A stretch of DNA of 64,000 nt, taken from NCBI RefSeq assembly GCF_044324875.1, contig NZ_CP172185.1; one strand, written 5' to 3'. Both the position numbers and the translations under genes were made by a program. Below the pieces are notes generated by a model. That model was given only the letters and a program-made list of their open reading frames with translations. It searched no databases and was not told where the DNA came from. Every line of letters begins with the position of its first letter. Within the stretch, counting starts at the first letter, position 1. The DNA comes from Escherichia coli. GTDB taxonomy: Bacteria > Pseudomonadota > Gammaproteobacteria > Enterobacterales > Enterobacteriaceae. Below are positions 3,628 to 36,007 of this stretch, piece after piece.

Positions 3628-3638
3628 GGATGTTCACA

Positions 3639-4232: not shown

Positions 4233-4265
4233 TAATCCGAACACTGTCTGTTGTTCACTTTTGCA

Positions 4266-4303
4266 GGCGTCAGGCCCCCTTTCTGATGATGAAGCCTGAC
4301 GCC
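4266..4303. terminator. Bidirectional hairpin between convergent rclC and the aldo-keto reductase gene
   Basis: Inverted repeat ggcgtcaggc ... gcctgacgcc. Confidence 0.5.
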
Positions 4304-4391
4304 ATATTACCGGAGATATGACAGAGTGAAGATCAATATCACTCCCCTGTTAAAAGATTCTTGTCGTCTCAGGTAAAATACATGATTAATA

Positions 4392-5276: not shown

Positions 5277-5508
5277 TAGGTATGAACAATGAGTCTACGT
5301 TAAAACGTAACCTCAAATTAGTATGTGGATTTTGATATCACTTATGCAAAAAATTCATTAATAATGTAGGACTGAAACCTCTCTATTTTTGGGGCAATGA
5401 AGCAGACGCTATCAGTGCTTTTGCCTTGGGACTTGCTATTTTTGATACACTTAGGGCCCAGGACATAACGAAAATGTGCGATATGACAAAGAATTAACGG
5501 AGAATGTG

Positions 5509-6366: not shown

Positions 6367-6420
6367 TTGTCGCTATATCTAAATGAAAATATAACGAGAC
6401 TACTGTCAGGCAATTCAATA

Positions 6421-6453
6421 AATAATGGCGTTGAAGATGTCAACGCCATTATT
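6421..6453. terminator. Hairpin downstream of eaeH
   Basis: aataatggcgttgaagatgtcaacgccattatt perfect inverted repeat. Confidence 0.5.
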
Positions 6454-6486
6454 GTTTATTAGAATGTTACTTTCATATTCTCAATA

Positions 6487-10740: not shown

Positions 10741-11290
10741 TGAGATAATTTCCTGATGAACGAATTAACGAACATAGGCAGACACAAATAATGGCGTCTG
10801 CTTGTCAGAAAAACCGGGGATTTCCCGGTTTCCTTTTCCGCAGAAAAGGAAATACCTTTATGTAAGAAAGTACACCGCCACCTAATATATCCAGTGTCTG
10901 TAGCCACTCATCAGGTGGTTGGGCGCGGGATTATATTTTTATTTATGGGTAAAAATTTAGCTTTTTGTGCAAGTTATTAAATAGATACTTAAGTTATATT
11001 TCTTACTCTGCGGGCAGTGAATAATTCATTATTAAGAGTGAATAATAATGACCTGTCTTTAATTAATCGCTATTGGGAATACGTCGAAGTAGGTATATAC
11101 ACCAGGATAAACCAATATATTTTTTATGGATATTCATTTTTCTTCATCAGACTGTGAATTGCAGGGATATCGAACTTGCACGACTCATCGCAACACTCAA
11201 GCAGATTTATGAATTTCGTTCATAACCCCTGACAAATCCTGCCGTCTAATCGAGCTCTTCCCTTTACGTTATGCTTCTCATGAACGATAA

Positions 11291-13581
<2,291 letters not shown>

Positions 13582-13591
13582 CTACCGCTTT

Positions 13592-14347
13592 TTAACGCGT
13601 TTTTTCGCTGCTTTCCACTACCGGGGGATTTTTCCTCAGTGACTCTCCCTGAAGGACCACTCGGTGTGAGTTATGTACCAGTCTGTCCAGGATGGCATCT
13701 GCTGTTGTTGGGTTCTCCATCAGACCATGCCATTTATCTACCGGGAACTGGCTTACCACTATCGTGCTGCTTTGTCCGTAACGATCCTCTATGAGCTCCA
13801 GAAGGTCATTACACTGGGCGTTACTTAACTGTTCCAGCCCCAGATCGTCCAGGATTAGAACCTGTATTTTTTGCAACTGTTTCAGATATTTCAGCCAGCT
13901 GCCATCAACACGTCCCTGAGCCAGTTGTTCCAGTAATCGCCCGGTTCTACAGTACCGGACGCTGTGTTTCTGTCGACATGCCTGTTCGCCCAGCGCATTG
14001 GCTATCCAGCTCTTGCCACATCCTGTCGGACCGGTTATCAGCAGGTTTTTCCTGTGGGTTATGTAGTGGCCGTTCAGCAGTTCTCTCATCTGTTCAGCCC
14101 GCAGACCTCTTGAGGCCGGATAGCGCAGCCCTTCCGGTGTTGCCTGGTATTTCAGGCCGGCATTTTTTCTCAACCGTGCCACACGGCTGTTTTCCCTGCT
14201 CAGAAGCTCGTCATCAACCAGCAGCGTCAGCCTTTCCTCGAACGACAGTTCGTCGTAGGTCTGAGGCGTTTCCCGCTGCCGTATCAGGCTCCCGGCCATC
14301 GCCGGGAGTTTCAGTTGGGTCAGTTTGTTTAACAGGTTATCACTCAT
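13592..14347 (-). CDS. istB: IS21-family helper ATPase IstB (251 aa from MSDNLL)
   Basis: Walker A GPTGCGKS, DnaC-like; start overlaps istA stop. Confidence 0.8.
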   Translation of the reverse strand: MSDNLLNKLTQLKLPAMAGSLIRQRETPQTYDELSFEERLTLLVDDELLSRENSRVARLRKNAGLKYQATPEGLRYPASRGLRAEQMRELLNGHYITHRKNLLITGPTGCGKSWIANALGEQACRQKHSVRYCRTGRLLEQLAQGRVDGSWLKYLKQLQKIQVLILDDLGLEQLSNAQCNDLLELIEDRYGQSSTIVVSQFPVDKWHGLMENPTTADAILDRLVHNSHRVVLQGESLRKNPPVVESSEKTR

Positions 14348-14363
14348 ACTGTTGTTCCTTCTG

Positions 14364-15899
14364 TCAGTGGTAGTAGCCCGGACCACGCAGGTTTTCATGC
14401 TCTGAAGCATATGCCGGATGTTGTTCGCCCTGGCGGGATAATGGAAGCTCCAGGTTCTCCCGATGGTGACGCAGCAGATTGTCGATAAAGCGTCTGTCAG
14501 GGGCGTTATAGTGCAGGGCAACGTAACAGGCCTTTTCCAGCCGTTCCGGGCCGTATTTTTTCTGAAGTGCCAGCAGCCCCAGAACTGCACGATAAGCCAG
14601 TTCCGGATGGGGTTTTGCCTTCAGCATGGATTCAACCACCCGGCCTGTGGACGGGCCCGTACGTTTTCCCTGCTCGATCAGGCGTTCCGGTGTCCATGTC
14701 CCGTGCTGCCGGTGGCGCTCTGGCATGTGAAGCGGATTGGTTGTGTGTTTATATTCATGTGTGCTGCGCGGATGTTGCGCCACACACTGCCCCTTGTGCC
14801 AGAGCTGTACCACCGACTGCCCCGCCTTCAGTGACAGACGCTGACCGACCAGTTCGTGTGGAACGGAGTACCAGTGACGGGCATATTCAACGTGGTAGTC
14901 AGGGCCAACCTTCACAGCTTTGTATTCCGTGTATTCATAAGGTGCCAGAGGCAGCGGAGAGAGTGCTGGCGCATCCAGTATGCGGAAGCGTTCTGCACGG
15001 GTTTGATTGCCGTACCCCTTCATTGGCCGGTTATTCATGTCTGTCAGTAACTCCCTAAGGCGCGCATTCAGCGCCCTGAGCGTGTGGAAGGTTTCATTAC
15101 GGATGCGGGCAAGAAGCCATCGTTCAACGATGAGGACGCCGTTTTCTGCTTTTGGTTTATCTTTAGGTTTGCGTGGTCGGGCCGGGATGATAACCGTGCC
15201 ATAGTGCTCAGCCAGTGCCTGATAACTGTCGTTGATGACAGGCTCATATCGATCGGCCTTTTTCACTGCGCTTCTGAGGTTATCGGGGATGAGCAGCTTC
15301 GGTACGCCGCCCAGGAAGGTCAGGCAACGGCTGTGGGCATTTAACCATGACATCATGTCCTGACCTTCGCACGCTTCAACGTAGGTATAGTTGGACGCCC
15401 CCATTACGGCCACGAAGATTGCCACGCGGCGTATCTCACCGGTGTCCGGATTAATAACAGGAACCGTAGGACCACAGAAGTCGATAAAAAGCTTTTCGCC
15501 GGCACGATGCTCCTGGCGCATGGAGAGACGTCGCGTTTTTTTCCACTCCCGGTAGCAACGGCAGAAGTGCGAGTATCCCATCGCTTTGTTACCCGCCTGT
15601 GCCTTGTATTCCATCCACAACAGTTGCCGCGTCACACCTGGTTTTCTCATTTCCGTATCGAAGTACAACATGTCAGGCATTACAAGCTCTGATGCAAAGG
15701 TGTCTTTGGGCGGAAAAATGAGTTTCTCCAGCGTGTCATGGGATATATCAGCAGGTAATGGCCATGACAGAGAAGAGGCTTTGAAGCGGGCAAGAACCTC
15801 AAAAACGGTTGAGGCGCTGATGTGTAACGTCAGTCCGATACAACGGTTAGTCAGCTTCTTGTCGAACTTGAGCTGAAGGATCTTAAAACAGGTTTCCAT
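14364..15899 (-). CDS. istA: IS21-family transposase IstA (start uncertain; track ORF extends to 16010)
   Basis: N-terminal HTH and DDE transposase core; gene order typical of IS21 family. Confidence 0.75.
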   Translation of the reverse strand: METCFKILQLKFDKKLTNRCIGLTLHISASTVFEVLARFKASSLSWPLPADISHDTLEKLIFPPKDTFASELVMPDMLYFDTEMRKPGVTRQLLWMEYKAQAGNKAMGYSHFCRCYREWKKTRRLSMRQEHRAGEKLFIDFCGPTVPVINPDTGEIRRVAIFVAVMGASNYTYVEACEGQDMMSWLNAHSRCLTFLGGVPKLLIPDNLRSAVKKADRYEPVINDSYQALAEHYGTVIIPARPRKPKDKPKAENGVLIVERWLLARIRNETFHTLRALNARLRELLTDMNNRPMKGYGNQTRAERFRILDAPALSPLPLAPYEYTEYKAVKVGPDYHVEYARHWYSVPHELVGQRLSLKAGQSVVQLWHKGQCVAQHPRSTHEYKHTTNPLHMPERHRQHGTWTPERLIEQGKRTGPSTGRVVESMLKAKPHPELAYRAVLGLLALQKKYGPERLEKACYVALHYNAPDRRFIDNLLRHHRENLELPLSRQGEQHPAYASEHENLRGPGYYH

Positions 15900-16013
15900 A
15901 GTGCTCCTGGATTTTCTCTTTCTGGACATTGACGTCTCCACTGGTTTAAACACGGCAATGGAGACTGTGGTGAAAAGAGTTAATTCCCGGAGTGACTGGC
16001 AGGATGCCAATCA

Positions 16014-16859
<846 letters not shown>

Positions 16860-16941
16860 CTAAACTTTCAGGAGATTTATTATGAATAAACGTATCCTCA
16901 CGATTGCGCCATTCTTCTTACCGATATTCTGACACACATCA

Positions 16942-17868
16942 TTAACTTTCTATTTTTACTCTTTTCTCCACCATAAAATCAATAAAAGCACGAACTTTAG
17001 AGGGCATTCTCACCCGTGATGAAACATATATATAAAATCCAGGAAATGAAACGGCCCAATCCTCAAGAATCGGCTGTAACTTGCCCGCATTGATATGTTC
17101 AGCGATTGCAAAATCCAGATGTTGAATGATACCCGTTCCATTCAGCGCCATTCGTATCATGCTTTCGTCATCATTAGAAATATACTTACCTGAAACCTCT
17201 ATTTCGAACTCTTCATTACCCCCCACAACATTAGAAAACTCCCATGCAGAGAGTGCACCGCTACTTTTATGCCGCAACCGAAGGCAATTATGGTTACTCA
17301 GTTCCTGAGGCGTTTCAGGAATACCGTGTTCTTTTAAATAATCTGGCGATGCCACAGTAACCAGTTTAATAAGCGGAGAAACAGGAACGGCAGTCATATG
17401 CTCATCCAGTCCTTGCTCAAGACGTATGCCCACATCACAGCCGTCCGCAATAATGTTAGATAAACCGTCATCCATAATGAGTTCTATCTTTGTTTTGGGG
17501 TAACGAGTAAGAAACTCGCCAATATGAGGCTCAACAAGCATCCGTGCTGCAACACGGGAGGAATTTATTCTCAACAGGCCTGTAGGTTCAAGTTGGGTAT
17601 CACCAACATCTTTCAAAGCATCATCAATTTGCCCCAAAGCCGACACCAGCACTTCATACAGACGCTGTCCTTCCTCAGTAAGCGACATATTGCGGGTCGT
17701 ACGGTATATCAGCTTGGTGTTAAGACGTTCCTCAAGAGATTTTAAATTCTGGGACAATGCGGCCCGCGTAATACCCATTTCAGAAGCGGCTCTGGAAAAA
17801 CTGCCGGCACGAACAATAAGCGCAAACCAGGCAAGAGAAGGCAAAATTGAAGGCTCTATTTTCATCAT
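16942..17868 (-). CDS. LysR-family transcriptional regulator (start uncertain)
   Basis: N-terminal LysR HTH (FSRAASEMGITRAALSQNLKSLEERL), C-terminal substrate-binding domain; divergent from hydrolase gene. Confidence 0.75.
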   Translation of the reverse strand: MMKIEPSILPSLAWFALIVRAGSFSRAASEMGITRAALSQNLKSLEERLNTKLIYRTTRNMSLTEEGQRLYEVLVSALGQIDDALKDVGDTQLEPTGLLRINSSRVAARMLVEPHIGEFLTRYPKTKIELIMDDGLSNIIADGCDVGIRLEQGLDEHMTAVPVSPLIKLVTVASPDYLKEHGIPETPQELSNHNCLRLRHKSSGALSAWEFSNVVGGNEEFEIEVSGKYISNDDESMIRMALNGTGIIQHLDFAIAEHINAGKLQPILEDWAVSFPGFYIYVSSRVRMPSKVRAFIDFMVEKRVKIES

Positions 17869-18024
17869 TGTAAACCTTAACTTAACACTGTGATAGATAT
17901 TAGACCATTGATGATAACCAATACAAGTCATACTATTACGCCGTTCTCGATATGAACACGAATGCCAGTTGCGGATAATAGAAATGATATTTAAATCTGT
18001 TTAGGCAAATCCCCGGAGCTTGAA

Positions 18025-18945
18025 ATGAAAACTGTTTCGATAAAACATACTTACTGGGATATAGCTGCTGATATCTATTTCCCTGACGATTTTAATAGTG
18101 AAAAAAAGTATCCTGCCATTATCAGCGCCCATCCAATTGGAAGCTGCAAAGAACAGACATCGGGTAGTGTGTATGGTGCCGCCCTGGCAAAAGCTGGCTT
18201 TATCGTCATTGCTTTTGATGCCAGTTTTCAGGGAAGCAGCGGTGGAGAACCGCGTTATCTGGAAGATCCAACAATGCGAGTAAAAGACTTCAGCATTGTC
18301 GTTGATTACCTTACCACCTTACCTTACGTTGATGCCGGGCGTATTGGTGTACTGGGTATTTGTGGTGGAGGTGGATATGCCATTAATGCCGCAATGACAG
18401 AACGTCGAATTAAAGCTATTGGTACTGTCACGGGTGCAAACTACGGGCGTCTTATGCGTGAGGGATTTACAGCGTTTAATCCTATCGGAGCACTCGAAGC
18501 GATGGCGCAACAAAGAACAGACGAAGCTAACGGCGCAAAACTTCGCGTAGATGATTTACTCCCCTCTTCTCCGGATGCAGCTCTTGAAGCGGGATTAACA
18601 GAAATAGACCTTTTTGAAGCCACAGAATATTATCGTTCGCCACGAGGCTGTGCACCTAATGGGGTAAATCGTTCGCTATTCTCACATCAGACTGTTGCCG
18701 TGGGTTGGGATGCATTTCATCTTGCAGAAGTCCTGTTAACTCAACCAATAATGGTTGTGGTGGGCGATAGAGTGGGCGCATTTGGTGCCTACCGTGACGG
18801 CTGCGAAATTATTGGCCGCGCTGCCTCAAAACATAAAGAGCTGGTCGTGGTTGAAGGTTATTCACATTACGACCTGTATGATAAGCCAGAACCTGTGAAA
18901 CAGGCACTCGAAAAATTAATTCCTTTTTATAAAACACATTTGTAA
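18025..18945 (+). CDS. Alpha/beta-hydrolase fold protein, cytoplasmic (306 aa)
   Basis: Nucleophile elbow GICGGGG and C-terminal GYSHYDLYD; paralog of the 38418..39575 product. Confidence 0.65.
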   Translation: MKTVSIKHTYWDIAADIYFPDDFNSEKKYPAIISAHPIGSCKEQTSGSVYGAALAKAGFIVIAFDASFQGSSGGEPRYLEDPTMRVKDFSIVVDYLTTLPYVDAGRIGVLGICGGGGYAINAAMTERRIKAIGTVTGANYGRLMREGFTAFNPIGALEAMAQQRTDEANGAKLRVDDLLPSSPDAALEAGLTEIDLFEATEYYRSPRGCAPNGVNRSLFSHQTVAVGWDAFHLAEVLLTQPIMVVVGDRVGAFGAYRDGCEIIGRAASKHKELVVVEGYSHYDLYDKPEPVKQALEKLIPFYKTHL

Positions 18946-19117
18946 TAATCTTACAGGGAGATTCCTTATCTCCCTGACATTTATCCTTTATTGACTACAC
19001 AACAATAATAAAATTACTCAAAAAGAATTCTATTAAAGGAAAAAAGCATCAAAAAGTAGCAACTCAACTTATTAAGATTATACGCATTAAAATCAGATAA
19101 ACATTTGAGGTATTGTT

Positions 19118-20260
19118 ATGACAAATAAACACCCATCATTGTTTTCTCCTTTTATGCTGACAGAAAAAATAAAGCTACGTAATCGTATCGTTATGGCCCC
19201 TATGACGACCTGGTCAGCGAATCCTGATGGAACCATCTCTGAGCAAGAACTCGAATTTTATAAACGCCGCTCACAAAATGTTGGTTTAGTAATAACAGGA
19301 TGTACCTATGTCACGCCAAGCGGCATTGGGTTTACTCATGAATTTGCCGCGTATGACGACCGTTTCATTAACAGCCTTGAAAAGTTAGCAGCGGCAGCCA
19401 AAAGTGGCGGTGCTCCGGCTATTTTGCAGATTTTCCACGCCGGTAATAAAGCCATCCCGGAGCTTGTACCAAATAACGATGTTATTAGTGCCAGCGCATC
19501 AAGCGTAAAATCTGGTGACTTTATGAAGAGAGTGGTACAAAGCAGGGAAATGACTGAAAACGAAATTCAGGAAACCATTAGAGCATTCGGAGATGTCACA
19601 AAAAGGGCGATTAAAGCAGGTTTTGATGGCATTGAACTTCATGGTGCGCACGGATTCCTTCTACAGAATTTCTTCTCCCCTCTATTTAACCAGCGTAATG
19701 ACCGATGGGGAGGAGATCTCGAAAGACGTATGCGATTCCCGCTGGCCGTATTACAGGAAGTAAAAAATGTAGTCTATGAATATGCGACAAAGCCCTTTGC
19801 CATCGGTTACAGAATATCTCCTGAAGAATCTGCAACAGGGGGGCTGCGGATAGAGGATACTTATAAACTCCTTGATCGGCTCATTGCATCCGGTATTTCG
19901 TATATACATACCTCGCTGGTCAGTATTAACGATAGCTACCCTGTTGAGTCGCCAAATGGCCCCCGAACTATTGAATTGATTTTAAATCATATTGCAGGCA
20001 GAGTGCCGGTAATCGCTGCAGGTAAAATACGCACACCGTCTCAGGCTCAAGAAGCAATTTCCACTGGCCTGCCACTTGTTGCGATCGGTAAAGGGCTGGT
20101 GATAAATCCAGAATGGGTGACTTTAGCTGAATCAGGTAGAAGCCATGAAATTCAAACAACCCTTAATCCACAACTTGTTCCTGAATTAACCATTCCGGAT
20201 AAACTATGGGATCAAATTCAGGCATCGAAAGGAACTGGCTGGTTTCCGTTAATGGATTAA
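19118..20260 (+). CDS. Old Yellow Enzyme-family NAD(P)H:flavin oxidoreductase (380 aa)
   Basis: TIM-barrel OYE motifs (RIVMAPMTT, GFDGIELHGAHGFLL, IAAGKI). Confidence 0.75.
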   Translation: MTNKHPSLFSPFMLTEKIKLRNRIVMAPMTTWSANPDGTISEQELEFYKRRSQNVGLVITGCTYVTPSGIGFTHEFAAYDDRFINSLEKLAAAAKSGGAPAILQIFHAGNKAIPELVPNNDVISASASSVKSGDFMKRVVQSREMTENEIQETIRAFGDVTKRAIKAGFDGIELHGAHGFLLQNFFSPLFNQRNDRWGGDLERRMRFPLAVLQEVKNVVYEYATKPFAIGYRISPEESATGGLRIEDTYKLLDRLIASGISYIHTSLVSINDSYPVESPNGPRTIELILNHIAGRVPVIAAGKIRTPSQAQEAISTGLPLVAIGKGLVINPEWVTLAESGRSHEIQTTLNPQLVPELTIPDKLWDQIQASKGTGWFPLMD

Positions 20261-20731
20261 ATATCTATTACTCTCCCGAGTGTAAAACTATCAAACCAAT
20301 GAGTAACCGATACAGCCTCGCAAATTCTTTCAGATAATTAACCCGTCACTGCGGCACGTTCTCTCATAAGGCGTGCCTGCTGTGTAATCCAGTATGGATC
20401 CAGCATAGTTGACGGCTTAATAGACTCAATTCCTTTCCCAGGTTACCAACAACGATATCTTGTATAACACCCCAGAAGATACGACATTATGATGAGATGA
20501 GGTATGCTCCTCAGCGCCAATCAACGCCAGGGCTGGGCCAGTTTTGAGATCAGACTCATTCCCGGACTGACTTCAGGCGACATATATCAATGACGTTGGG
20601 GCAATAAAAGATAGCCGATGTAATACATCTATTCAAATTTGTGATACATGTCAAAAAATTGGTTGACCAAACTCGTTATTTATATAAGGGCACTTACGAA
20701 GTGCACTCTTTTTTAAAGCGAGGAAGTACCA

Positions 20732-20833
20732 ATGAAAGAGAATAAAGTACAACAAATCAGTCATAAACTGATTAATATCGTTGTTTTTGTCGCAATTGTA
20801 GAATACGCCTATTTATTTCTCCATTTCTATTAA
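20732..20833 (+). CDS. ykgR: Small hydrophobic protein YkgR (33 aa)
   Basis: MKENKVQQISHKLINIVVFVAIVEYAYLFLHFY; GAGG 7 nt upstream of ATG. Confidence 0.6.
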   Translation: MKENKVQQISHKLINIVVFVAIVEYAYLFLHFY

Positions 20834-21162
20834 TAACGGCAATAAACTGTTCACTTCAGTGATATTAAAAAATATGCATCCTCTCCCTTTTTTGTAAGTA
20901 ATTATTATATCCGTGGGAGAGGAATACACGCTGTCCGGCAATCAATCAAACTGCGATAAATCATCGGCCAGTAAAATGGAGATAGCCTCCATTCTCGAAA
21001 AATTCATACTCTCAGCGAAACCATCACTCATCAAGGCGTTTATGGGAGCGTCGCCAATGGCTGCTAACAATGCCAGACTTCCCCGTTGCCGAAATTCCAC
21101 ATACCACAAATGGTCACAGGGATTGGGTGTTGAAATGATCCGGATGAGCATGTATCTTTATG

Positions 21163-21180
21163 GTTATGTTATAACATAAC
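21163..21180. promoter_or_regulatory. Zur box upstream of ykgM-ykgO
   Basis: Perfect palindrome gttatgttataacataac 9 bp before the rpmE2 start. Confidence 0.7.
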
Positions 21181-21188
21181 AGGTAAAA

Positions 21189-21455
21189 ATGATGAAGCCC
21201 AATATCCATCCTGAGTATCGTACTGTGGTGTTCCACGACACCAGTGTTGATGAGTACTTTAAAATCGGCTCGACTATCAAAACAGACCGTGAGATTGAGC
21301 TGGATGGCGTAACGTATCCGTACGTGACAATTGATGTCTCTTCTAAATCGCACCCGTTCTATACAGGGAAGCTGAGAACAGTGGCATCAGAAGGAAATGT
21401 TGCACGATTCACCCAACGTTTTGGTCGTTTTGTTAGCACGAAAAAGGGGGCATGA
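21189..21455 (+). CDS. ykgM: Zinc-independent ribosomal protein L31 paralog (type B)
   Basis: [19 protein letters not shown]...; lacks CxxC zinc ribbon. Confidence 0.85.
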
Positions 21456-21595
21456 TGAAAGTCCTTAACTCTCTGCGTACCGCAAAAGAACGCCATCCAG
21501 ACTGTCAGATTGTGAAGCGAAAAGGACGGCTATATGTGATTTGTAAATCTAATCCACGTTTTAAGGCCGTTCAGGGTCGTAAGAAAAAACGTTGA
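21455..21595 (+). CDS. ykgO: Zinc-independent ribosomal protein L36 paralog (46 aa)
   Basis: [46 protein letters not shown]; ATG overlaps ykgM stop (ATGA); below track size cut-off. Confidence 0.85.
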
Positions 21596-22172
21596 TTCAA
21601 AATTCGACGAATTAACGATATTTGTCTGATTAATAATCAGACCGGATTAATGTTGGTGTATTTATTACACCAGCATTAATTTTCCTGAGGATGTATCTTC
21701 CTGTTCATTTAAGGTCAACTGCCTGACGTTTCTCTCCGAATATTCCATTATATTAATGTTGACTTGTTGACCAGGTGCGCCCTGTATGCTGGCATCAACT
21801 CTCTTTTAGACTGAACACGCCACTCAGTTTCCTCCCTTTGCGACGCAGCCTGCATTTACACTCAAACGGTTAAGATGATAAATGTGGTAAATCTGTTGGT
21901 ACTGACATAAAAACGTTTACGCCACAGGAACGGCCTGATCCACCGGTAACCCCATCGCCGACGTTCGAGTGCCAGTTAGAGTAACGCGCACAGATGACTG
22001 AATGCAGTGCCCTGGCAAAGAGGCCATCGTTCCTGTGACAACTGGCAGTCTTCGTTTAACTTCACTTAATTTGGCTCTTAGGGGGCTTACCGGACAGATG
22101 ACGTACTTACACCTGTTTAATTTTTCATCACTTATTGGGATGAACACCCATAACCATGGTAATGACTCCAAC

Positions 22173-22676
22173 TTATTGATAGTGTTTTATGTTCAGATAA
22201 TGCCCGATGACTTTGTCATGCAGCTCCACCGATTTTGAGAACGACAGCGACTTCCGTCCCAGCCGTGCCAGGTGCTGCCTCAGATTCAGGTTATGCCGCT
22301 CAATTCGCTGCGTATATCGCTTGCTGATTACGTGCAGCTTTCCCTTCAGGCGGGATTCATACAGTGGCCAGCCATCCGTCATCCATATCACCACGTCAAA
22401 GGGTGACAGCAGGCTCATAAGACGCCCCAGCGTCGCCATAGTGCGTTCACCGAATACGTGCGCAACAACCGTCTTCCGGAGCCTGTCATACGCGTAAAAC
22501 AGCCAGCGCTGGCGCGATTTAGCCCCGACATAGCCCCACTGTTCGTCCATTTCCGCGCAGACGATGACGTCACTGCCCGGCTGTATGCGCGAGGTTACCG
22601 ACTGCGGCCTGAGTTTTTTAAGTGACGTAAAATCGTGTTGAGGCCAACGCCCATAATGCGGGCAGTTGCCCGGCAT
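22173..22676 (-). CDS. insB: IS1 transposase InsB frame (made as InsAB by -1 frameshift)
   Basis: 167-aa ORF overlapping insA 3' end. Confidence 0.85.
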
Positions 22677-22870
22677 CCAACGCCATTCATGGCCATATCA
22701 ATGATTTTCTGGTGCGTACCGGGTTGAGAAGCGGTGTAAGTGAACTGCAGTTGCCATGTTTTACGGCAGTGAGAGCAGAGATAGCGCTGATGTCCGGCGG
22801 TGCTTTTGCCGTTACGCACCACCCCGTCAGTAGCTGAACAGGAGGGACAGCTGATAGAAACAGAAGCCAC
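22595..22870 (-). CDS. insA: IS1 protein InsA
   Basis: 91-aa ORF with zinc-finger CPSC...CSHC and HTH. Confidence 0.9.
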
Positions 22871-23396
22871 TGGAGCACCTCAAAAACACCATCATACACT
22901 AAATCAGTAAGTTGGCAGCATCACCCATGAACACCCATAACCATTTTGTGCGGCATGTTAATCCATTAAAACACCTTACTGATTGGCAAATCATCTTTAA
23001 TTATGACTCATGATAGTTTTATATTCTATTTATTATCATTTAAACTTGTTTTTTTACTAGTCCATTACACAACACATTAAGACTATTCCTAACACCTCAG
23101 GGCAAAGTTCCTGGCTAATATAAAATGCAAGTAAGAATTGAACGTTATATTGCCAATAACCTTATGAAACTGAATGTCTTTTTCTTCTTATCAAAAAAGC
23201 AATATTTTCATTTTTTGTAAATATTGACTTAACCATGGAATTCCTTTTCTGTTCACATATTGACACTCATCAGGAAAAAAACATAAATTTAAACCTAATC
23301 GAAATAATTAAAACTTAATCTCGTTTAACCTATATTGATATGTGCTACGTATCTTATTTACTTCCGATTTACTAAAGAAACTGAATGTACCTGTAA

Positions 23397-24008
<612 letters not shown>

Positions 24009-24082
24009 ACTCCAGGCAAGTTAGTTTTAAAAAATGACTCACAGGGACATCACGTCCTCAATTCAACTCGGGAAGAAAAGCA

Positions 24083-24670
24083 ATGAAAAAAAAGGTTCTG
24101 GCAATAGCTCTGGTAACGGTGTTTACCGGCATGGGTGTGGCGCAGGCTGCTGACGTAACAGCTCAGGCTGTAGCGACCTGGTCAGCAACAGCCAAAAAAG
24201 ACACCACCAGTAAGCTGGTTGTGACGCCACTCGGTAGCCTGGCGTTCCAGTATGCCGAAGGCATTAAAGGTTTTAACTCACAGAAAGGTCTATTTGACGT
24301 AGCTATCGAGGGTGACTCAACGGCTACCGCCTTTAAACTGACCTCACGTCTTATCACCAACACCTTAACCCAGTTGGATACCTCAGGTTCCACACTGAAT
24401 GTGGGCGTGGATTATAACGGCGCGGCAGTCGAAAAAACTGGCGATACCGTGATGATCGATACCGCCAACGGCGTACTGGGCGGCAACCTTAGCCCACTGG
24501 CTAACGGTTACAATGCCAGCAATCGTACCACCGCACAGGATGGTTTCACTTTCTCCATCATCAGCGGCACCACCAATGGTACCACCGCAGTAACCGATTA
24601 CAGCACTCTACCGGAAGGCATCTGGAGCGGCGACGTTAGCGTACAGTTCGACGCGACCTGGACCAGTTAA
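24083..24670 (+). CDS. ecpA: E. coli common pilus major subunit
   Basis: Signal peptide, pilin-like T/S-rich sequence, first gene after ecpR. Confidence 0.85.
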
Positions 24671-24685
24671 TCTCTCTGATGTACC

Positions 24686-24711
24686 AGCAGGGGTAGCCCC
24701 CCTGCTTTATT
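24686..24711 (+). terminator. Hairpin between ecpA and ecpB (partial terminator/attenuator)
   Basis: agcaggggtagcccccctgct followed by ttatt. Confidence 0.55.
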
Positions 24712-24727
24712 CCTGGACGGAATTGTT

Positions 24728-25396
24728 ATGAAAAAGCACCTTCTGCCTCTCGCTCTGCTGTTTTCCGGAATATCTCCGGCCCAGGCGCTGGATGTCGGCG
24801 ATATATCATCGTTTATGAACAGTGACAGCAGCACGCTGAGCAAAACGATCAAAAACAGTACCGACAGTGGTCGCCTTATCAATATCCGTCTCGAACGGCT
24901 CTCTTCACCGCTTGACGACGGGCAGGTTATCTCAATGGACAAGCCGGATGAGTTGCTACTCACTCCCGCCAGCTTGCTGCTACCCGCCCAAGCCAGCGAA
25001 GTGATCCGCTTCTTCTATAAGGGACCCGCAGATGAAAAAGAGCGCTACTACCGCATTGTCTGGTTTGATCAGGCCCTCAGTGATGCGCAGCGCGATAATG
25101 CCAACCGTAGCGCTGTGGCCACTGCTTCCGCCCGCATCGGCACCATTCTGGTCGTCGCCCCTCGCCAGGCGAACTACCACTTTCAGTACGCCAACGGCTC
25201 CCTGACAAATACAGGAAATGCGACGCTGCGGATCCTCGCCTACGGCCCCTGCCTGAAAGCCGCCAATGGTAAGGAGTGTAAAGAGAATTACTACCTGATG
25301 CCGGGCAAGTCGCGTCGTTTTACCCGCGTGGACACGGCGGATAACAAAGGACGGGTTGCACTTTGGCAGGGTGATAAGTTCATTCCCGTGAAATAG
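24728..25396 (+). CDS. ecpB: Pilus chaperone EcpB
   Basis: Signal peptide; operon position. Confidence 0.8.
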
Positions 25397-25421
25397 ATAG
25401 CTGTGCAGATGGATAACGACA

Positions 25422-27947
25422 ATGCCTTTACGACGGTTCTCCCCAGGACTGAAAGCCCAGTTTGCCTTCGGCATGGTCTTTTTGTTCGTTCAGCCCGATG
25501 CCAGCGCTGCTGACATAAGTGCGCAGCAAATAGGTGGGGTGATTATTCCGCAGGCCTTCAGTCAGGCGCTCCAGGACGGCATGAGCGTCCCGCTTTATAT
25601 TCATCTCGCCGGTAGCCAGGGTCGCCAGGACGATCAGCGAATCGGAAGCGCTTTTATCTGGCTGGATGATGGACAGCTACGCATCCGGAAAATACAGCTG
25701 GAAGAGAGTGAAGATAACGCCAGTGTCAGCGAACAAACTCGACAGCAGCTGATGGCTCTGGCGAACGCCCCGTTCAATGAGGCCCTTACCATCCCCCTGA
25801 CTGACAACGCGCAGCTGGATCTCAGCTTGCGCCAACTGCTGCTGCAGCTAGTGGTCAAGCGCGAAGCGCTGGGCACCGTACTACGCTCACGTAGCGAAGA
25901 CATCGGGCAGTCCAGTGTTAACACCCTCAGCAGTAATCTGAGCTATAACTTCGGCGTCTATAACAACCAGTTGCGTAACGGCGGGAGCAACACATCCAGC
26001 TATCTGTCGCTGAATAACGTTACTGCACTGCGCGAACATCACGTGGTGCTCGACGGCTCGCTGTACGGGATCGGTAGCGGTCAACAGGACAGTGAATTAT
26101 ATAAAGCGATGTATGAACGCGATTTTGCCGGTCACCGATTTGCCGGTGGAATGCTCGACACCTGGAACTTGCAGTCCTTAGGGCCGATGACCGCCATTTC
26201 AGCAGGGAAGATTTACGGCCTTTCCTGGGGAAACCAGGCCAGCTCCACCATCTTCGACAGCAGCCAGTCAGCCACGCCAGTGATCGCCTTTTTACCGGCG
26301 GCGGGCGAAGTACATCTCACCCGTGATGGGCGGCTATTAAGCGTTCAGAACTTCACCATGGGCAATCATGAAGTGGATACCCGGGGTCTACCGTACGGTA
26401 TTTACGATGTGGAAGTTGAGGTGATCGTTAACGGTCGCGTGATCAGCAAACGTACTCAACGGGTCAATAAGCTGTTTAGCCGGGGGCGCGGCGTCGGTGC
26501 ACCACTGGCGTGGCAGATATGGGGCGGTAGCTTTCATATGGATCGCTGGTCGGAAAACGGGAAAAAGACGCGACCAGCTAAAGAGAGTTGGCTGGCAGGT
26601 GCCTCGACCTCCGGCTCACTGAGTACGCTTAGCTGGGCGGCAACGGGATATGGATACGATAATCAGGCGGTGGGTGAAACCCGTCTGACGCTGCCGCTTG
26701 GGGGGGCGATCAACGTTAACCTGCAAAACATGCTGGCCAGTGACAGCTCATGGAGCAACATCGCCAGCATCAGCGCCACTCTACCGGGAGGCTTCAGTTC
26801 GCTGTGGGTTAACCAGGAAAAAACCCGCATTGGCAATCAATTGCGACGTAGCGATGCCGACAACCGTGCAATCGGCGGCACACTCAACCTGAACTCACTG
26901 TGGTCGAAGCTGGGTACGTTCAGCATCAGCTACAATGATGACCGCCGCTACAACAGCCATTATTACACGGCAGATTACTATCAAAGTGTCTACAGCGGTA
27001 CCTTTGGTTCGCTTGGCCTGCGGGCCGGTATTCAGCGCTATAACAACGGCGACAGCAGCGCCAATACAGGGAAATATATCGCTCTCGATCTCTCGCTACC
27101 ACTGGGCAACTGGTTTAGCGCAGGGATGACCCATCAAAACGGCTACACCATGGCAAACCTGTCAGCACGCAAACAGTTTGATGAAGGAACCATTCGCACT
27201 GTTGGTGCCAATCTGTCACGAGCCATCTCCGGCGATACCGGTGATGACAAAACCCTCAGCGGTGGGGCGTATGCACAGTTCGACGCTCGTTACGCCAGCG
27301 GAACGCTGAACGTTAATAGCGCGGCGGACGGCTACATCAATACCAATTTGACCGCCAACGGCAGCGTCGGCTGGCAGGGTAAAAACATCGCTGCCAGCGG
27401 GCGGACCGATGGCAACGCTGGGGTGATATTCGACACTGGCCTGGAGAACGATGGTCAGATCAGCGCCAAAATCAACGGGCGGATTTTCACGCTTAACGGC
27501 AAGCGTAACTATCTCCCGCTCTCTCCCTATGGAAGATATGAGGTGGAGTTGCAGAACAGCAAAAACTCACTCGACAGTTACGATATCGTCAGCGGTCGCA
27601 AAAGCCATCTGACTCTCTATCCAGGCAATGTCGCTGTCATTGAGCCAGAGGTGAAGCAGATGGTTACCGTCTCCGGTCGTATCCGTGCGGAAGACGGCAC
27701 ACTGCTGGCTAACGCACGGATTAACAACCATATCGGCCGAACCCGAACCGATGAAAACGGCGAGTTTGTCATGGACGTAGATAAGAAATACCCCACTATC
27801 GATTTTCGCTACAGTGGCAATAAAACCTGCGAAGTGGCACTGGAACTCAACCAGGCGCGCGGTGCCGTCTGGGTCGGTGATGTGGTCTGCAGCGGCCTCT
27901 CATCGTGGGCGGCGGTGACGCAGACAGGAGAAGAGAATGAGAGTTAA
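25422..27947 (+). CDS. ecpC: Outer-membrane usher EcpC (841 aa)
   Basis: Large beta-rich ORF with signal peptide. Confidence 0.85.
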
Positions 27948-29580
27948 CCTACTGATAGCGATGATAATATTTGCGCTAATCTGGCCTGCAACCGCGCTCA
28001 GAGCTGCAGTGAGCAAAACAACCTGGGCGGATGCACCGGCAAGCGAGTTTGTGTTTGTCGAAAACAACTCAGACGACAACTTTTTCGTCACGCCTGGCGG
28101 GGCGCTGGATCCGCGCCTGACCGGTGCCAACCGCTGGACCGGTTTAAAATACACTGGCTCAGGAACCATCTATCAACAAAGCCTCGGCTACATTGATAAC
28201 GGTTACAACACCGGCCTCTATACCAACTGGAAGTTTGATATGTGGCTGGAAAATTCGCCGGTTTCATCTCCTTTAACTGGCTTACGCTGCATCAACTGGT
28301 ACGCAGGGTGTAATATGACCACCAGTCTTATCCTGCCGCAAACCACCGACGCCAGTGGATTTTATGGCGCGACGGTGACCAGCGGCGGCGCGAAGTGGAT
28401 GCACGGCATGTTGTCAGACGCGTTTTACCAGTATATGCAACAAATGCCCGTCGGCAGCAGCTTTACAATGACCATCAATGCCTGCCAGACCTCAGTGAAC
28501 TATGACGCCAGCAGCGGCGCGCGTTGTAAGGATCAGGCCTCCGGAAACTGGTATGTTCGCAATGTCACCCATACAAAAGCAGCAAATCTGCGGTTGATAA
28601 ATACCCACTCGCTGGCGGAGGTGTTTATCAACAGCGACGGAGTACCGACTCTGGGCGAAGGGAACGCCGACTGCCGGACACAAACCATCGGCAGCCTTTC
28701 AGGATTAAGTTGTAAGATGGTTAACTATACCCTGCAAACAAACGGACTCAGCAACACCTCAATCCATATCTTCCCGGCGATCGCCAACTCGTCGTTAGCC
28801 TCGGCCGTCGGGGCGTACGATATGCAGTTCAGTCTGAATGGCAGTTCATGGAAACCGGTGAGCAATACTGCCTATTACTACACCTTCAACGAGATGAAGA
28901 GCGCAGACTCGATCTATGTTTTCTTCTCGAGCAACTTCTTTAAACAGATGGTGAACCTCGGGATCAGCGATATCAACACCAAAGATCTGTTCAACTTTCG
29001 CTTTCAGAACACCACATCACCGGAGTCTGGCTGGTATGAATTTTCTACCTCCAACACGCTGATTATCAAACCCCGTGATTTCAGCATCAGTATTATCTCC
29101 GATGAATATACTCAGACACCGTCGCGGGAGGGATATGTCGGCAGCGGCGAGTCGGCACTCGATTTCGGCTATATCGTAACCACCAGCGGTAAAACAGCTG
29201 CCGACGAAGTGCTGATCAAGGTGACCGGACCCGCGCAGGTGATTGGCGGGCGCTCCTATTGTGTCTTCAGCTCCGATGACGGTAAGGCGAAAGTACCGTT
29301 CCCGGCGACGCTTTCCTTTATTACCCGCAACGGAGCTACAAAAACCTACGATGCCGGGTGCGATGATAGCTGGCGGGATATGACCGATGCGCTGTGGCTG
29401 ACCACACCGTGGACTGATATCTCTGGCGAAGTGGGGCAGATGGATAAGACCACAGTCAAATTTTCGATTCCAATGGATAACGCCATTTCGCTGCGTACGG
29501 TAGATGATAACGGCTGGTTTGGCGAAGTCAGCGCTTCAGGAGAAATTCATGTTCAGGCGACGTGGCGTAACATTAACTAA
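27937..29580 (+). CDS. ecpD: Pilus tip adhesin EcpD (547 aa)
   Basis: Signal peptide; overlaps ecpC stop. Confidence 0.8.
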
Positions 29581-30259
29581 GGCCCTGCTGACAGCGGTCT
29601 GTATGCTGGCGGCACCTTTGACACAGGCGATTTCGGTCGGCAATCTGACATTTTCGCTGCCGTCCGAGACTGACTTTGTCAGCAAACGTGTAGTGAATAA
29701 CAACAAAAGCGCACGGATATACCGTATTGCCATCAGTGCTATTGATAGCCCGGGCAGCAGTGAATTGCGCACCCGACCGGTGGATGGTGAACTACTTTTC
29801 GCCCCCCGCCAGCTGGCGTTGCAGGCTGGTGAGAGCGAGTATTTTAAATTTTACTATCATGGTCCACAGGATAACCGCGAGCGCTACTACCGGGTCTCAT
29901 TTCGCGAGGTCCCCACTCGCAACCAGACAAGACGCAGCCCAACCGGCGGCGAGGTCAGCACGGAGCCGGTGGTGGTGATGGATACCATTCTGGTAGTACG
30001 ACCACGTCAGGTTCAGTTTAAATGGTCCTTCGACCAGGTGACAGGAACGGTAAGTAACACCGGCAACACGTGGTTTAAGCTACTGATTAAACCAGGATGT
30101 GATTCGACCGAAGAGGAAGGCGACGCCTGGTATCTACGTCCGGGAGACGTTGTTCATCAGCCTGAGTTACGTCAGCCGGGGAATCATTATCTGGTCTATA
30201 ACGACAAATTCATTAAGATTAGCGATTCCTGTCCGGCTAAGCCCCCTTCGGCGGACTAA
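29549..30259 (+). CDS. ecpE: Second pilus chaperone EcpE (start set at MFRRRGVTL; track ORF starts at 29504)
   Basis: Signal peptide; resembles EcpB (YYRVSF..., NTGNT motifs). Confidence 0.75.
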
Positions 30260-30571
30260 GACTTATCCATCGGTCGAGGGAAGAACTCCACCTCAGAGCC
30301 CCAAAAATCGTTTAAATGATGTGGAAGCGATCGTCAATATCACCTGTAACGATGGGCTTTCTCATATGCACACAATAGTGTTCAGGAGACACGGAAAGGT
30401 ACCAGGCAGCCTGCTAACGAGTGGTTTATTCACGAATTAGTACGTAAAATCGGTAACGGCTGGAAATCATTCAATACTCACACTATCGAAAGTTCCCCAG
30501 CCAACCGCGGTACGTTCTTACATACGATGTACCGCTGTTCTCTTTACGATTTATAGCTGTACTGGTGAATT

Positions 30572-30901
30572 ATGAGCAATCTGAATCCATGCATGACGTG
30601 TGGTGCCTGTTGTGCATTTTTCCGCGTCTCTTTTTACTGGGCCGAAGCCGACGATGCTGGCGGTACCATTCCCGCCAGGCTCACTGAACAAATATCCCCT
30701 TTTCACCGATGCATGAGCGGTACCAATCAGAAAAACCCCCGATGTATTGCCCTTGCAGGAACACCGGGCAAAAATGCCTGCTGCACGATATATAAAAATC
30801 GATCGTCCACGTGCAGAGAATTCGCCATGTCTGGTGAGAACGGAGTCGTCAATGAGGCTTGCAATCGTGCAAGAGCTAAATACGGGCTGACACCGTTATA
30901 A
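30572..30901 (+). CDS. ykgJ: Cys-rich YkgJ-family putative zinc/iron-chelating protein
   Basis: CMTCGACC ... CCTIY ... CREF motifs; hairpin-T run terminator downstream. Confidence 0.8.
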
Positions 30902-31149
30902 ATATGCAATAATTAATTGCACTGCCCCGCCAGCTATAATCGCGGGGCTTCGTTTTTCAGGGATAACAAAACCCGAAACTTCTTCCATCTGCCAGCAACA
31001 ATGCCTCTTCCTCTATAGTGTTCTCCGGATCTACAGCATCCTGAAGTAGCGCGATGTACTCATTGGCTATCTGCATCAGAAAGTTAAAAACAATGTTTTT
31101 AACCTATAAAAATGGCGCTGTATTTGCGCCATTTTTATCATTCAATGCA

Positions 31150-31764
31150 TTATCTGTTTGAGCCTAAAGGGATCTCAGGGTCTGGCTCATGAGTAATTCT
31201 GTTTCGTAAATCTCTGCGAATAATTTCAATGGACCAGAACCAGACTAAATGTCCAAAAATTTCAGAAACATTCTCATACCACGGGAGATCAAACAGAGGT
31301 GGCGTCAGTCCCATGAGAGGGAATGAAATCATATGAACAAAAAGTTGGGCTAAAGCACCTGCCAGTAAGCCCTGCCAGAGTTTAATTTTTGGAAATACTT
31401 CAGCGACCACACAATAACCGACAGCAAACACTATCGAAAAGATAATGTGCGTAACACCAACCCAGTTAAAGACATGCCCGGCAAAGGTATAAACAGCCGC
31501 ATTGGGATCTGTCAGCCCCAACCAGTCTCGAAGAAAAATATACGGAGGATTGAGAAAATTACGGGAGCAATCAATTTGCCCAGCAGCCCTGATTAATGAT
31601 TCCGGGCCACACGCTGCATTAAACATATCCACCGGGCTACGTGGCGGCAATGGAACTTCAGCCCCCCACTTCACAAATGCGGAAACAACGCCAGCAATCA
31701 GCCCAATGAATGCAGCAAGACCATAACGTCTGCGGTTCGGTGGAGTTTGTTCAAATATATTCAT
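31150..31764 (-). CDS. yagU: DUF1440 inner-membrane protein YagU
   Basis: 204-aa hydrophobic ORF. Confidence 0.8.
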
Positions 31765-32169
31765 ATCTACCCTGCTTGTACCATTATGTTATACACCTCT
31801 TCAGGAGTATTCATAAAACAAGGCAAATGTAAAGAACTGTATTGTTTTGTATAATGCAATGGTGACTAATCGCCAATTAATATAAGCACCATCATTTCTC
31901 CCTATTTTTATGTTAGAAGTGACAAAGATTTGTAGGGTGATGTAGAGCTGACAATCACAGGTTTCCTTATCGGTTTTTGCATCGCACAACTAAAGCAATA
32001 AACGAGCTCCCGTCATCGGCGAATATGAATTAATTAGCCGGGCTCATAGCTGCATTCGCGTTTTAAGAATAATCCTCCTGCTCTCACCGACTATGCTTAA
32101 CGTTTAAAAAAGCATCAGCACTCTCGCAACGCTCTCTTATTTTCCCCTTTAGAATACCGGAGGCCTGGT

Positions 32170-32859
32170 ATGAGCAACCAAGGCGAATACCCCGAAGATA
32201 ATCGGGTTGGGAAGCACGAGCCGCACGATTTTAGTTTGACCCGTCGCGATCTGATTAAAGTCAGCGCCGCAACGGCGGCGACCGCCGTGGTTTATCCTCA
32301 TTCTACGCTTGCAGCAAGCGTTCCGGCAGCTACACCCGCGCCAGAGATAATGCCCCTGACACTTAAGGTGAACGGCAAAACCGAGCAGTTGGACGTTGAT
32401 ACCCGAACCACGCTACTGGACGCTTTGCGTGAAAATCTGCTTCTGATCGGTACCAAGAAAGGTTGCGATCACGGGCAGTGCGGAGCCTGTACCGTGCTGG
32501 TCAATGGTCGCAGGCTTAATGCCTGCCTGACGCTTGCAGTCATGCATCAGGGGGCCGAGCTCACCACCATTGAAGGCCTGGGTTCACCAGAGAATCTTCA
32601 CCCCATGCAGGCGGCCTTTATCAAGCATGATGGCTTCCAGTGCGGCTACTGCACCTCCGGGCAAATTTGCTCATCAGTAGCGGTGCTAAAAGAGATTCAG
32701 GACGGCATTCCCAGTCACGTCACGGTCGATTTGGTTTCCCCTCCAGAAAGAACTGCCGATGAGATCCGTGAACGTATGAGCGGCAACATCTGTCGCTGTG
32801 GTGCATACGCTAACATCCTTGCCGCCATTGAAGATGCTGCGGGGGAGATAAAATCATGA
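32170..32859 (+). CDS. paoA: Periplasmic aldehyde oxidoreductase, 2Fe-2S subunit
   Basis: Tat motif TRRDLIK; 2Fe-2S cysteine motifs CDHGQCGAC and CGYC...CRC. Confidence 0.9.
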
Positions 32860-33812
32860 AGGCGTTTACCTATGAACGAGTGAACACCCCGGCCGAGGCG
32901 GCACTTAGCGCTCAGCGCGTACCCGGCGCAAAATTTATCGCTGGCGGGACCAATCTGCTGGACCTGATGAAGCTGGAAATTGAAACGCCAACCCACCTTA
33001 TCGATGTGAACGGGCTCGGGCTCGATAAGATTGAAGTGACCGACGCGGGTGGGCTGCGCATCGGCGCACTGGTACGGAACACCGACCTGGCAGCTCACGA
33101 GCGCGTGCGTCGTGATTACGCGGTACTCTCCCGCGCCCTGCTCGCTGGCGCGTCTGGTCAGTTACGTAATCAGGCAACCACCGCAGGTAATCTGCTCCAG
33201 CGCACGCGCTGCCCCTATTTTTACGACACCAATCAGCCCTGCAATAAGCGCCTGCCCGGGAGCGGCTGCGCGGCACTTGAAGGCTTTAGCCGTCAGCACG
33301 CGGTGGTAGGCGTAAGCGAAGCCTGCATTGCCACCCATCCGAGCGATATGGCGGTCGCAATGCGGTTGCTGGATGCGGTGGTGGAAACCATCACGCCGGA
33401 GGGAAAGACTCGCAGTATCACACTGGCTGATTTTTATCACCCTCCGGGAAAAACGCCGCACATTGAAACCGCCCTGCTTCCCGGTGAGCTTATCGTTGCG
33501 GTGACGTTACCTCCGCCGCTCGGCGGAAAACATATTTACCGTAAGGTGCGCGATCGCGCCTCCTACGCCTTTGCCCTGGTATCGGTCGCAGCGATTATTC
33601 AGCCTAACGGCAGCGGGCGCGTCGCGCTGGGCGGAGTAGCACATAAGCCCTGGCGCATTGAGGCTGCGGATGCTCAGCTATCCCAGGGGGCGCAGGCCGT
33701 GTATGACGCGCTGTTCGCCAGCGCCCATCCCACCACTGAAAACACCTTTAAACTCCTGTTGGCGAAGCGAACGCTTGCCTCCGTACTGGCTGAAGCGAGG
33801 GCACAGGCATGA
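32856..33812 (+). CDS. paoB: Aldehyde oxidoreductase FAD-binding subunit
   Basis: CO-dehydrogenase-flavoprotein-like ([11 protein letters not shown]). Confidence 0.9.
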
Positions 33813-36007
33813 AATTTGATAAACCCGCAGGGGAAAACCCGATTGATCAGCTGAAGGTTGTCGGTCGTCCCCATGACCGCATCGACGGACCGCTGAAAAC
33901 TACCGGCACGGCACGCTACGCCTACGAATGGCATGAAGAAGCCCCCAACGCCGCCTATGGTTATATCGTCGGTTCCGCCATTGCCAAAGGATGCCTCACC
34001 GCCCTCGATACGGACGCCGCGCAAAAAGCGCCGGGCGTACTGGCTGTCATTACCGCCAGTAACGCCGGGGCACTCGGCAAAGGCGACAAAAACACCGCCA
34101 GGCTGTTAGGCGGCCCCACTATTGAGCACTATCATCAGGCCATTGCGCTGGTAGTGGCCGAGACCTTCGAACAGGCACGAGCGGCGGCCTCGCTGGTGCA
34201 GGCGCACTATCGCCGTAATAAAGGAGCTTACTCCCTGGCGGACGAGAAACAGGCCGTCAGTCAGCCGCCGGAAGACACGCCCGATAAAAATGTTGGTGAC
34301 TTTGACGGGGCTTTCACCTCCGCTGCGGTGAAGATTGATGCTACCTACACGACCCCGGACCAGAGCCATATGGCGATGGAACCGCATGCCTCGATGGCCG
34401 TCTGGGATGGAAATAAGCTTACCCTCTGGACCTCAAATCAGATGATTGACTGGTGCCGCACCGATCTGGCAAAAACGCTGAAAGTGCCCGTGGAGAATGT
34501 GCGTATTATCTCCCCGTATATCGGTGGAGGGTTTGGCGGCAAGCTGTTCCTGAGAAGCGATGCGCTGCTGGCGGCCCTCGCCGCCCGTGCGGTGAAACGT
34601 CCGGTTAAAGTGATGCTCCCCCGCCCCACTATTCCCAATAACACAACGCACCGCCCCGCCACCCTTCAGCACCTGCGTATCGGTGCCGACCAGAGCGGGA
34701 AAATCACTGCTATCTCACATGAAAGCTGGTCCGGAAACCTGCCCGGCGGCACGCCGGAAACGGCGGTACAGCAAAGCGAATTTCTTTACGCAGGGGCGAA
34801 TCGTCATACAGGCCTGCGGCTCGCCACGCTTGATTTGCCGGAAGGGAACGCCATGCGTGCGCCCGGCGAAGCCCCCGGTCTGATGGCGCTCGAAATCGCG
34901 ATCGACGAACTGGCGGAAAAAGCGGGCATCGATCCCGTCGAGTTTCGCATCCTGAATGACACTCAGGTTGACCCCGCCGACCCGACGCGCCGCTTCTCTC
35001 GCCGTCAGCTTATCGAGTGCTTGCGCACCGGAGCGGATAAATTTGGCTGGAAGCAGCGCAACGCCACACCCGGACAGGTACGCGACGGGGAGTGGCTAGT
35101 CGGCCACGGTGTTGCGGCGGGCTTTCGCAATAATCTGCTGGAAAAATCGGGTGCGCGGGTTCACCTAGAACAAAACGGCACCGTTACCGTGGAAACGGAC
35201 ATGACCGATATTGGCACTGGCAGCTACACCATTCTGGCCCAGACGGCAGCGGAAATGCTTGGCGTACCGCTGGAGCAGGTTGCGGTTCACCTCGGCGATT
35301 CCAGTTTCCCGGTTTCTGCGGGTTCTGGTGGACAATGGGGCGCGAATACCTCCACCTCCGGCGTTTACGCCGCCTGTGTGAAGCTTCGCGAAATGATTGC
35401 CTCGGCAGTCGGGTTTGATCCTGAGCAGTCGCAGTTTGCCGACGGCAAGATTACCAACGGTACCCGAAGCGCCATGCTACATGAGGCCACCGCAGGCGGC
35501 AGACTGACAGTGGAAGAGAGCATTGAATTCGGAACACTGAGCAAGGAGTACCAGCAATCGACCTTTGCCGGGCATTTTGTGGAGGTCGGAGTGCATAGCG
35601 CGACGGGAGAAGTTTGGGTCCGGCGTATGCTCGCCGTGTGCGCAGCGGGGCGCATTCTGAATCCGAAAACTGCACGCAGCCAGGTCATTGGCGCGATGAC
35701 TATGGGCATGGGCGCGGCACTGATGGAGGAGCTGGTGGTAGATGACCGTTTGGGCTACTTCGTTAATCACGATATGGCGGGGTATGAGGTGCCGGTTCAT
35801 GCGGATATCCCAAAACAGGAGGTGATTTTCCTGGATGATACCGACCCCATATCCTCCCCGATGAAGGCCAAAGGTGTCGGTGAGCTGGGCCTGTGCGGCG
35901 TGAGCGCGGCTATCGCCAACGCGGTGTATAACGCCACCGGTATTCGGGTACGGGATTATCCCATCACTCTGGATAAGCTGCTCGATAAGCTGCCGGATGT
36001 GGTTTAA
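33809..36007 (+). CDS. paoC: Aldehyde oxidoreductase molybdopterin-binding subunit (732 aa)
   Basis: Xanthine-dehydrogenase-family molybdopterin domain; overlaps paoB stop. Confidence 0.9.

Follow-up and report, generated by a model that had tools for sequence, protein, structure and literature searches.

An intact IS1 flanked by an 18-bp direct repeat in the ykgL-ecpR spacer of Escherichia coli

The 64-kb stretch of Escherichia coli DNA analysed here (the window) carries an intact IS1 bordered on both sides by the two copies of a perfect 18-bp direct repeat, with one additional C at one junction, in a place where uninterrupted relatives have the 18-mer only once. We attribute this footprint, with a probability of roughly 0.6, to a single aberrant IS1 transposition in which an 18-bp target duplication would have followed from cuts 18-19 nt apart. 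The 18-bp footprint is a rare outlier within a class that has already been reported and it reveals no new mechanism. The chief value of the analysis is a corrected annotation: the element is intergenic and ykgL is not split.

The element and its flanks

The IS1 occupies 768 bp on the minus strand (22158-22925) and is intact with respect to its inverted repeats, its reading frames and its match to the transposase model. Its termini, GGTAATGACTCCAACTTATTGAT ... ATCAGTAAGTTGGCAGCATCACC, form a 23-nt imperfect inverted repeat pair, with the IRR-side arm at 22158-22180 and the IRL arm at 22903-22925, in agreement with the length of about 768 bp and the imperfect terminal repeats of about 23 bp (GGTGATGCTGCCAACTTACTGAT / GGTAATGACTCCAACTTATTGAT) that are characteristic of the family. 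Both frames are present, insA at about 22598-22870 (minus strand, 91 aa) and insB' at about 22176-22676 (minus strand, 167 aa), together with the A6C motif (AAAAAAC, 22613-22619 on the minus strand, element position 307) at which the -1 frameshift between them takes place. Against NF033558, the curated model of the IS1 transposase, the scores were 145.6 bits for the InsB part (cutoff 100) and 91.3 bits for the InsA part over the N-terminal 81 profile positions. At the nucleotide level, the window copy has one mismatch in 768 to an IS1A-family copy annotated in strain E1 and five mismatches to the IS1 copy of PSJ-12. All the tested features identify it as a bona fide, ordinary IS1, and since the inverted repeats, insA, the A6C motif, insB' and the NF033558 match are all in place, the element is therefore competent.

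The 18-bp perfect repeat reported in the original prediction was found on both sides of this element. The left copy of ATGAACACCCATAACCAT (22140-22157) abuts the IS1 end without any gap, while the right copy (22927-22944) begins one base beyond the IRL end, the intervening base being a single C at 22926 that lies between the last bases of IRL (..CATCACC) and the repeat; the one-base displacement that had been noted, with no explanation offered, on this side is thus borne out. Even with up to two mismatches allowed, ATGAACACCCATAACCAT has exactly two occurrences in the 64 kb, where 0 would be expected from shuffled sequences. The C at 22926 lengthens the terminal C-run of IS1 from CC to CCC and is missing from the empty sites. 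The repeat measures 18 bp and not 19, because the base preceding the left copy, G22139, differs from the C22926 that precedes the right copy. A 19-bp duplication was considered and ruled out on the same two bases, given that relatives have G or A at that position and never C. Nor does the site show a flush footprint of 8 or 9 bp, as the repeat is 18 bp long with an offset of 1 nt at IRL, and the only sequence flush at both IS1 ends is CAT (3 bp).

The right flank can nevertheless be parsed as IS1|CAT-GAACACC-CATAACCAT, in other words as a 9-bp footprint accompanied by 10 bp from the left flank. Under this parse a canonical 9-bp insertion, with CATAACCAT as its duplication, would have been followed by a local event that added the 10 bp CATGAACACC beside IRL, either by template switching or by gene conversion between the flanks at CAT/AT microhomology. 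The 18-mer does begin with AT (positions 1-2) and has CAT twice (positions 10-12 and 16-18), and the parse has the merit of explaining the extra C, with no stray base left over. We consider this history unlikely, given that the secondary local event would have to copy across the 768-bp IS1 and switch template twice with 2-3 bp of homology, and that an insertion plus a secondary event amounts to two rare events where one could suffice. Moreover, the intermediate that it predicts, in which IS1 occupies this position between 9-bp duplicates, was not found in complete E. coli genomes, GTDB representatives or JGI metagenomes.

The site before insertion

The original prediction had proposed that the uninterrupted locus be compared in other strains to see whether the 18-mer is present once or twice, and in all the alleles that we compared it is present once. 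In strain 7/2, which matches the window at 100% identity in the left flank, the site reads ...TTATTGGG-ATGAACACCCATAACCAT-TTTGTG..., and the K-12-type allele likewise has one 18-mer, with 2 substitutions. In a pairwise comparison with strain 2012C-4221, the left and right alignments share exactly 18 bp. When IS1, the C and one copy of the 18-mer were removed in silico, the resulting 823-bp sequence aligned with 2012C-4221 over its full length, in one piece and with 99.9% identity. This restored spacer was covered over at least 80% of its length in 4,971 E. coli genomes, and the intergenic spacer falls into two allele classes, at about 99% and about 92.5%. The draft genome GCA_050232825.1, to which a search with the exact EcpC protein led, is near-isogenic, with 0 mismatches over 3,523 bp on the left (window 18635-22157) and 3 mismatches over 11,021 bp on the right (window 22927-33947). 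Its site is empty and contains one 18-mer, which points to a recent, lineage-specific insertion. Of the other proteins used in the same way, EcpB proved too widespread to be informative, and two mini-ORFs that span the junctions had no match on record.

The single 18-mer of the empty sites indicates that the duplication arose with or after the insertion and that none existed beforehand. The target was thus single before the insertion and double after it, with a length that is not 8-9 bp, as is to be expected of a long non-canonical target duplication, and these single-copy sites support the earlier suggestion of an atypical duplication made by the insertion itself. The other suggestion made at that time, namely that IS1 had entered a pre-existing tandem duplication of the 18-mer, draws on the repeat and on nothing more. 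It is contradicted by the single 18-mer in every uninterrupted allele examined, the near-isogenic relative included, and an insertion between two old copies should in any case have left its own flush 8-9-bp duplication, whereas CAT alone is flush here. A query that represented the tandem allele (flank, 18-mer, C, 18-mer, flank) matched 4,975 E. coli genomes, and the best matches from these genomes, each aligned as two overlapping pieces, were single-copy sites spanning 60 bp, with no tandem among them. We therefore regard a pre-existing tandem target as effectively refuted.

The window junction was absent from 5,426 complete E. coli genomes and from the GTDB species representatives, and it was also absent from the JGI metagenomes when 0-1 filler base was allowed. 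A junction that is unique to the window in all the collections searched could be the result of a sequencing or assembly artefact, affecting the whole duplication or, more plausibly, the extra C alone (CC read as CCC), all the more so as the C prolongs a C-run at the IS1 end and IS copies are classic trouble spots for assemblers. An artefact of the whole duplication is unlikely, because the second copy of positions 1-9 of the 18-mer, to the right of IS1, would otherwise have no source unless it was present in the reads. The surrounding sequence is also clean, with 100% identity in the left flank, 3 SNPs over 11 kb in the right flank and 1 mismatch in IS1, and on balance we judge an artefact to be improbable.

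As for the wider region, the best match to positions 1-20000 of the window among the 5,426 complete E. coli genomes had 98.4% identity over 87% of the query. Judging from such sequence comparisons, the source lineage is scarce among complete genomes and the region is mosaic. Strain 2012C-4221 has an insert of about 10 kb in an aldo/keto reductase gene to the left of ykgR (locus coordinates 6403-16361) that is not in the window; it encodes an IS110-family transposase and filamentous-phage-like genes, among them a replication endonuclease, a Zot-domain protein and a GspD-like secretin.

The ykgL-ecpR spacer and its other IS1 copies

According to the original prediction, ykgL is split by IS1. Its homologue in the window, however, is uninterrupted (21630-21855, minus strand), in line with the 226-228 bp that ykgL measures, on the minus strand, in the RefSeq genomes aligned to the region, and IS1 lies in the spacer between this gene and ecpR, which opens the ecp (E. 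coli common pilus) operon and is found at 23466-24008 on the plus strand with its ATG at 23466. The insertion is located 302 bp upstream of the ykgL start codon and 540 bp upstream of the ecpR ATG. Frameshifts make the ykgL homologue a pseudogene; compared with the K-12-type allele, it has two deletions of 1 bp each. Both deletions also occur in strain 7/2, where the RefSeq label is 'frameshifted', and the same lesion is found in 7/2, 2012C-4221, MS20675 and E1; it is therefore an old, lineage-wide allele that is unrelated to IS1. The 18-mer had also been read as coding MNTHNH, but this frame belongs to an unannotated mini-ORF of 28-33 aa and not to ykgL, and the repeat does not encode a gene N-terminus.

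Without the insertion, the ykgL-ecpR intergenic region is 823 bp long and has a GC content of 35%, compared with 50% for the whole window. A search of this intergenic region against Rfam gave no match. Elsewhere in the window, and unrelated to the IS1 footprint, Rfam matches on the minus strand were obtained for IS009 RNA (30944-31144, 192.9 bits), for a tRNA-Thr(CGT) (42490-42565) and for three naRNA4/CssrE repeats (58114-59035).

To the right of the insertion, a TTCCT-N17-TTCCT element, which we take to be the EcpR-binding boxes (autoregulatory site), is intact at 23086-23112 on the plus strand, 161 bp from IS1. The ecp promoter is placed 121 bp upstream of ecpR in the part of PMC10038029 that quotes Martinez-Santos 2012, and relative to the position given there the IS1 end is about 420 bp further upstream. 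The window IS1 thus disrupts neither the ecp promoter region nor the putative EcpR boxes. The functional effect of the insertion is probably small, since ykgL was already a pseudogene and the promoter-proximal region of ecp is untouched, although upstream silencing of ecp may be affected.

IS1 has also entered this 823-bp spacer independently in three other strains. The copy of PSJ-12 (locus coordinates 2039-2806) lies 7 bp from the left junction of the window and is flanked by the flush 9-bp duplication GAACACCTG, that of MS20675 (1707-2474) by CACCTCAGG and that of E1 (783-1550) by CAAACTGTT, also flush and 9 bp long. All three share the orientation of the window copy, with IRL towards ecpR, and differ from it in their footprints, which are flush 9-bp duplications as against 18 bp and a C in the window. 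The spacer therefore seems to collect IS1 repeatedly, and such repeated capture may bear on strain differences in common-pilus regulation. In MS20675 (locus coordinates 1698-1720 and 2475-2490) the IS1 lies between the two TTCCT boxes that make up the TTCCT-N17-TTCCT element ahead of ecpR and should part them by about 780 bp, so that ecp autoactivation may be disabled in that strain.

Repeated capture in one orientation, with the PSJ-12 copy only 7 bp away, also raises the possibility that two canonical IS1 copies, alike in orientation but on different chromosomes, had entered the adjoining 9-mers ATGAACACC and CATAACCAT and were joined by a crossover inside IS1. The left junction of one allele combined with the right junction of the other would produce an 18-bp repeat. 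Such a crossover appears to us highly improbable, given that two rare alleles would have to meet in one cell, that neither parental allele was found among the 5,426 complete E. coli genomes, and that the extra C would be left unexplained. A collapse of two tandem IS1 copies within one chromosome was also considered and rejected, as recombination between them would be expected to cause a deletion and not a duplication.

The target flank also contains an IS1-end-like motif, CACCTTACTGATT (22972-22984, plus strand), which matches the inner part of IRL (CAACTTACTGATT) at 12 of 13 positions and has an equivalent in the K-12-type allele. Its reverse complement, AATCAGTAAGGTG, is one mismatch away from the IHF consensus WATCARNNNNTTR. 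Within it, the 10-mer CTTACTGATT, which is the IRL core and overlaps the match of IRL to the IHF consensus, occurs twice in the window, once in IRL and once at 22975-22984, in the target flank and 50 bp away from the end of IS1, where 0.12 occurrences would be expected per window. Galas and co-workers in 1980 and Gamas and co-workers in 1987 are said to have observed IS1 hot spots near end-like sequences and IHF sites. From its sequence, the candidate motif at 22972-22984 is a possible local attractor for IS1 and may lie behind the insertions of the window and PSJ-12, 7 bp apart, with a rough significance near 0.01 for what is a post-hoc association.

Rarity and origin of the footprint

In order to place the 18-bp repeat among natural IS1 insertions, we drew IS1 copies from the GTDB species representatives and from IMG/VR contigs and scored their flanks, which yielded 98 distinct sites with both flanks, 44 of them repeat-bearing. 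The repeat was 8 bp long at 14 of the 98 sites, 9 bp at 28 and 10 bp at 2, and it exceeded 10 bp at none. Another 53 sites had no flanking repeat, presumably as a result of rearrangement, and at one a match of only 6 bp, set off by 2 bases from either end, is presumably due to chance. All the repeats of at least 8 bp were flush, and an offset or a repeat longer than 10 bp was found at 0 of the 44 repeat-bearing natural sites, which implies a low prior for such an event (under about 1%). Iida and Hiestand-Nauer reportedly described an IS1 duplication of 10 bp in 1986, and Iida and co-workers, in 1985, IS1 duplications of 'variable length'.

Published data give a similar picture. IS1 'typically forms 8 or 9 bp' duplications (PMC12065110), and duplications of 8-10 bp were recorded in another study (PMC3031569). 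In a trap that captured 1,457 IS insertions, 78% of the IS1 duplications were 9 bp and 22% were 8 bp, and the IS1 insertions of these two lengths numbered 762 (Sheng et al. 2023; PMC10359306). 'Aberrant' IS1 duplications of 7, 11 and 23 bp made up 5 of about 767 trapped events, and the 23-bp duplication was recorded three times (PMC10359306, Table S7). The original prediction was therefore right to call an 18-bp repeat unusual against the canonical 9 bp, with lengths of 8-10 bp only in our survey and rare exceptions in the literature, and the experimental duplications of 7, 11 and 23 bp provide a precedent for a long stagger produced by the IS1 transposase.

For a single aberrant transposition, which is the origin that we favour, the course of events would be as follows. 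An intact IS1 would have entered the AT-rich ykgL-ecpR spacer, and its two 3' ends would have been attached to the target strands at cuts about 18-19 nt from each other, as opposed to the usual 8-9 nt, after which repair synthesis over the long single-stranded gaps would have doubled the 18-bp target. The long stagger itself, like the origin of the C, is inferred. The simple staggered-cut model predicts no extra C, which counts against this account, as does the fact that the 18+1 junction is known from one assembly. The C may have arisen in any of three ways, which fit equally well: it could be a base of the donor flank that came along when the donor was cleaved one base beyond IRL (5'-G|GGTGATG), the result of +1 slippage after the insertion, or a homopolymer sequencing error.

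A more specific version, which we offer tentatively and consider rather doubtful, is that the transpososome cut the target about two helical turns apart (18-19 nt) and brought a donor-flank nucleotide with it, and that the IS1-end-like, IHF-like motif 50 bp away, in a regulatory region bound by nucleoid proteins, may promote such cuts. If this reading were true, the cut spacing of IS1 would not be rigid, and local bending of the DNA could change it. The window footprint leaves the present view of IS1 as it is, and the practical consequence concerns annotation, given that IS1 tools using flush 8/9-bp repeats alone would miss such cases or mislabel them as duplication-free.

Compared with canonical IS1 (IS1A/IS1B-type, 768 bp), the window element is alike in its inverted repeats, its insA/insB' organization and its A6C site, and its AT-rich intergenic target is that of a canonical simple insertion. 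It departs from them in its footprint, which is 18 bp with a one-base offset at the IRL side where the canonical footprint is 8-9 bp. The closest parallel is found in the non-canonical duplications of Sheng et al., which are, like that of the window, IS1-made repeats well outside 8-9 bp and belong to a rare class. Those events were trapped in the laboratory, in cas genes carried on plasmids, and appear in the list as simple repeats, whereas the window copy is natural and chromosomal, with a length of 18 bp and a 1-nt filler; with it, the very few long target duplications recorded for IS1 gain a case from a natural chromosome.
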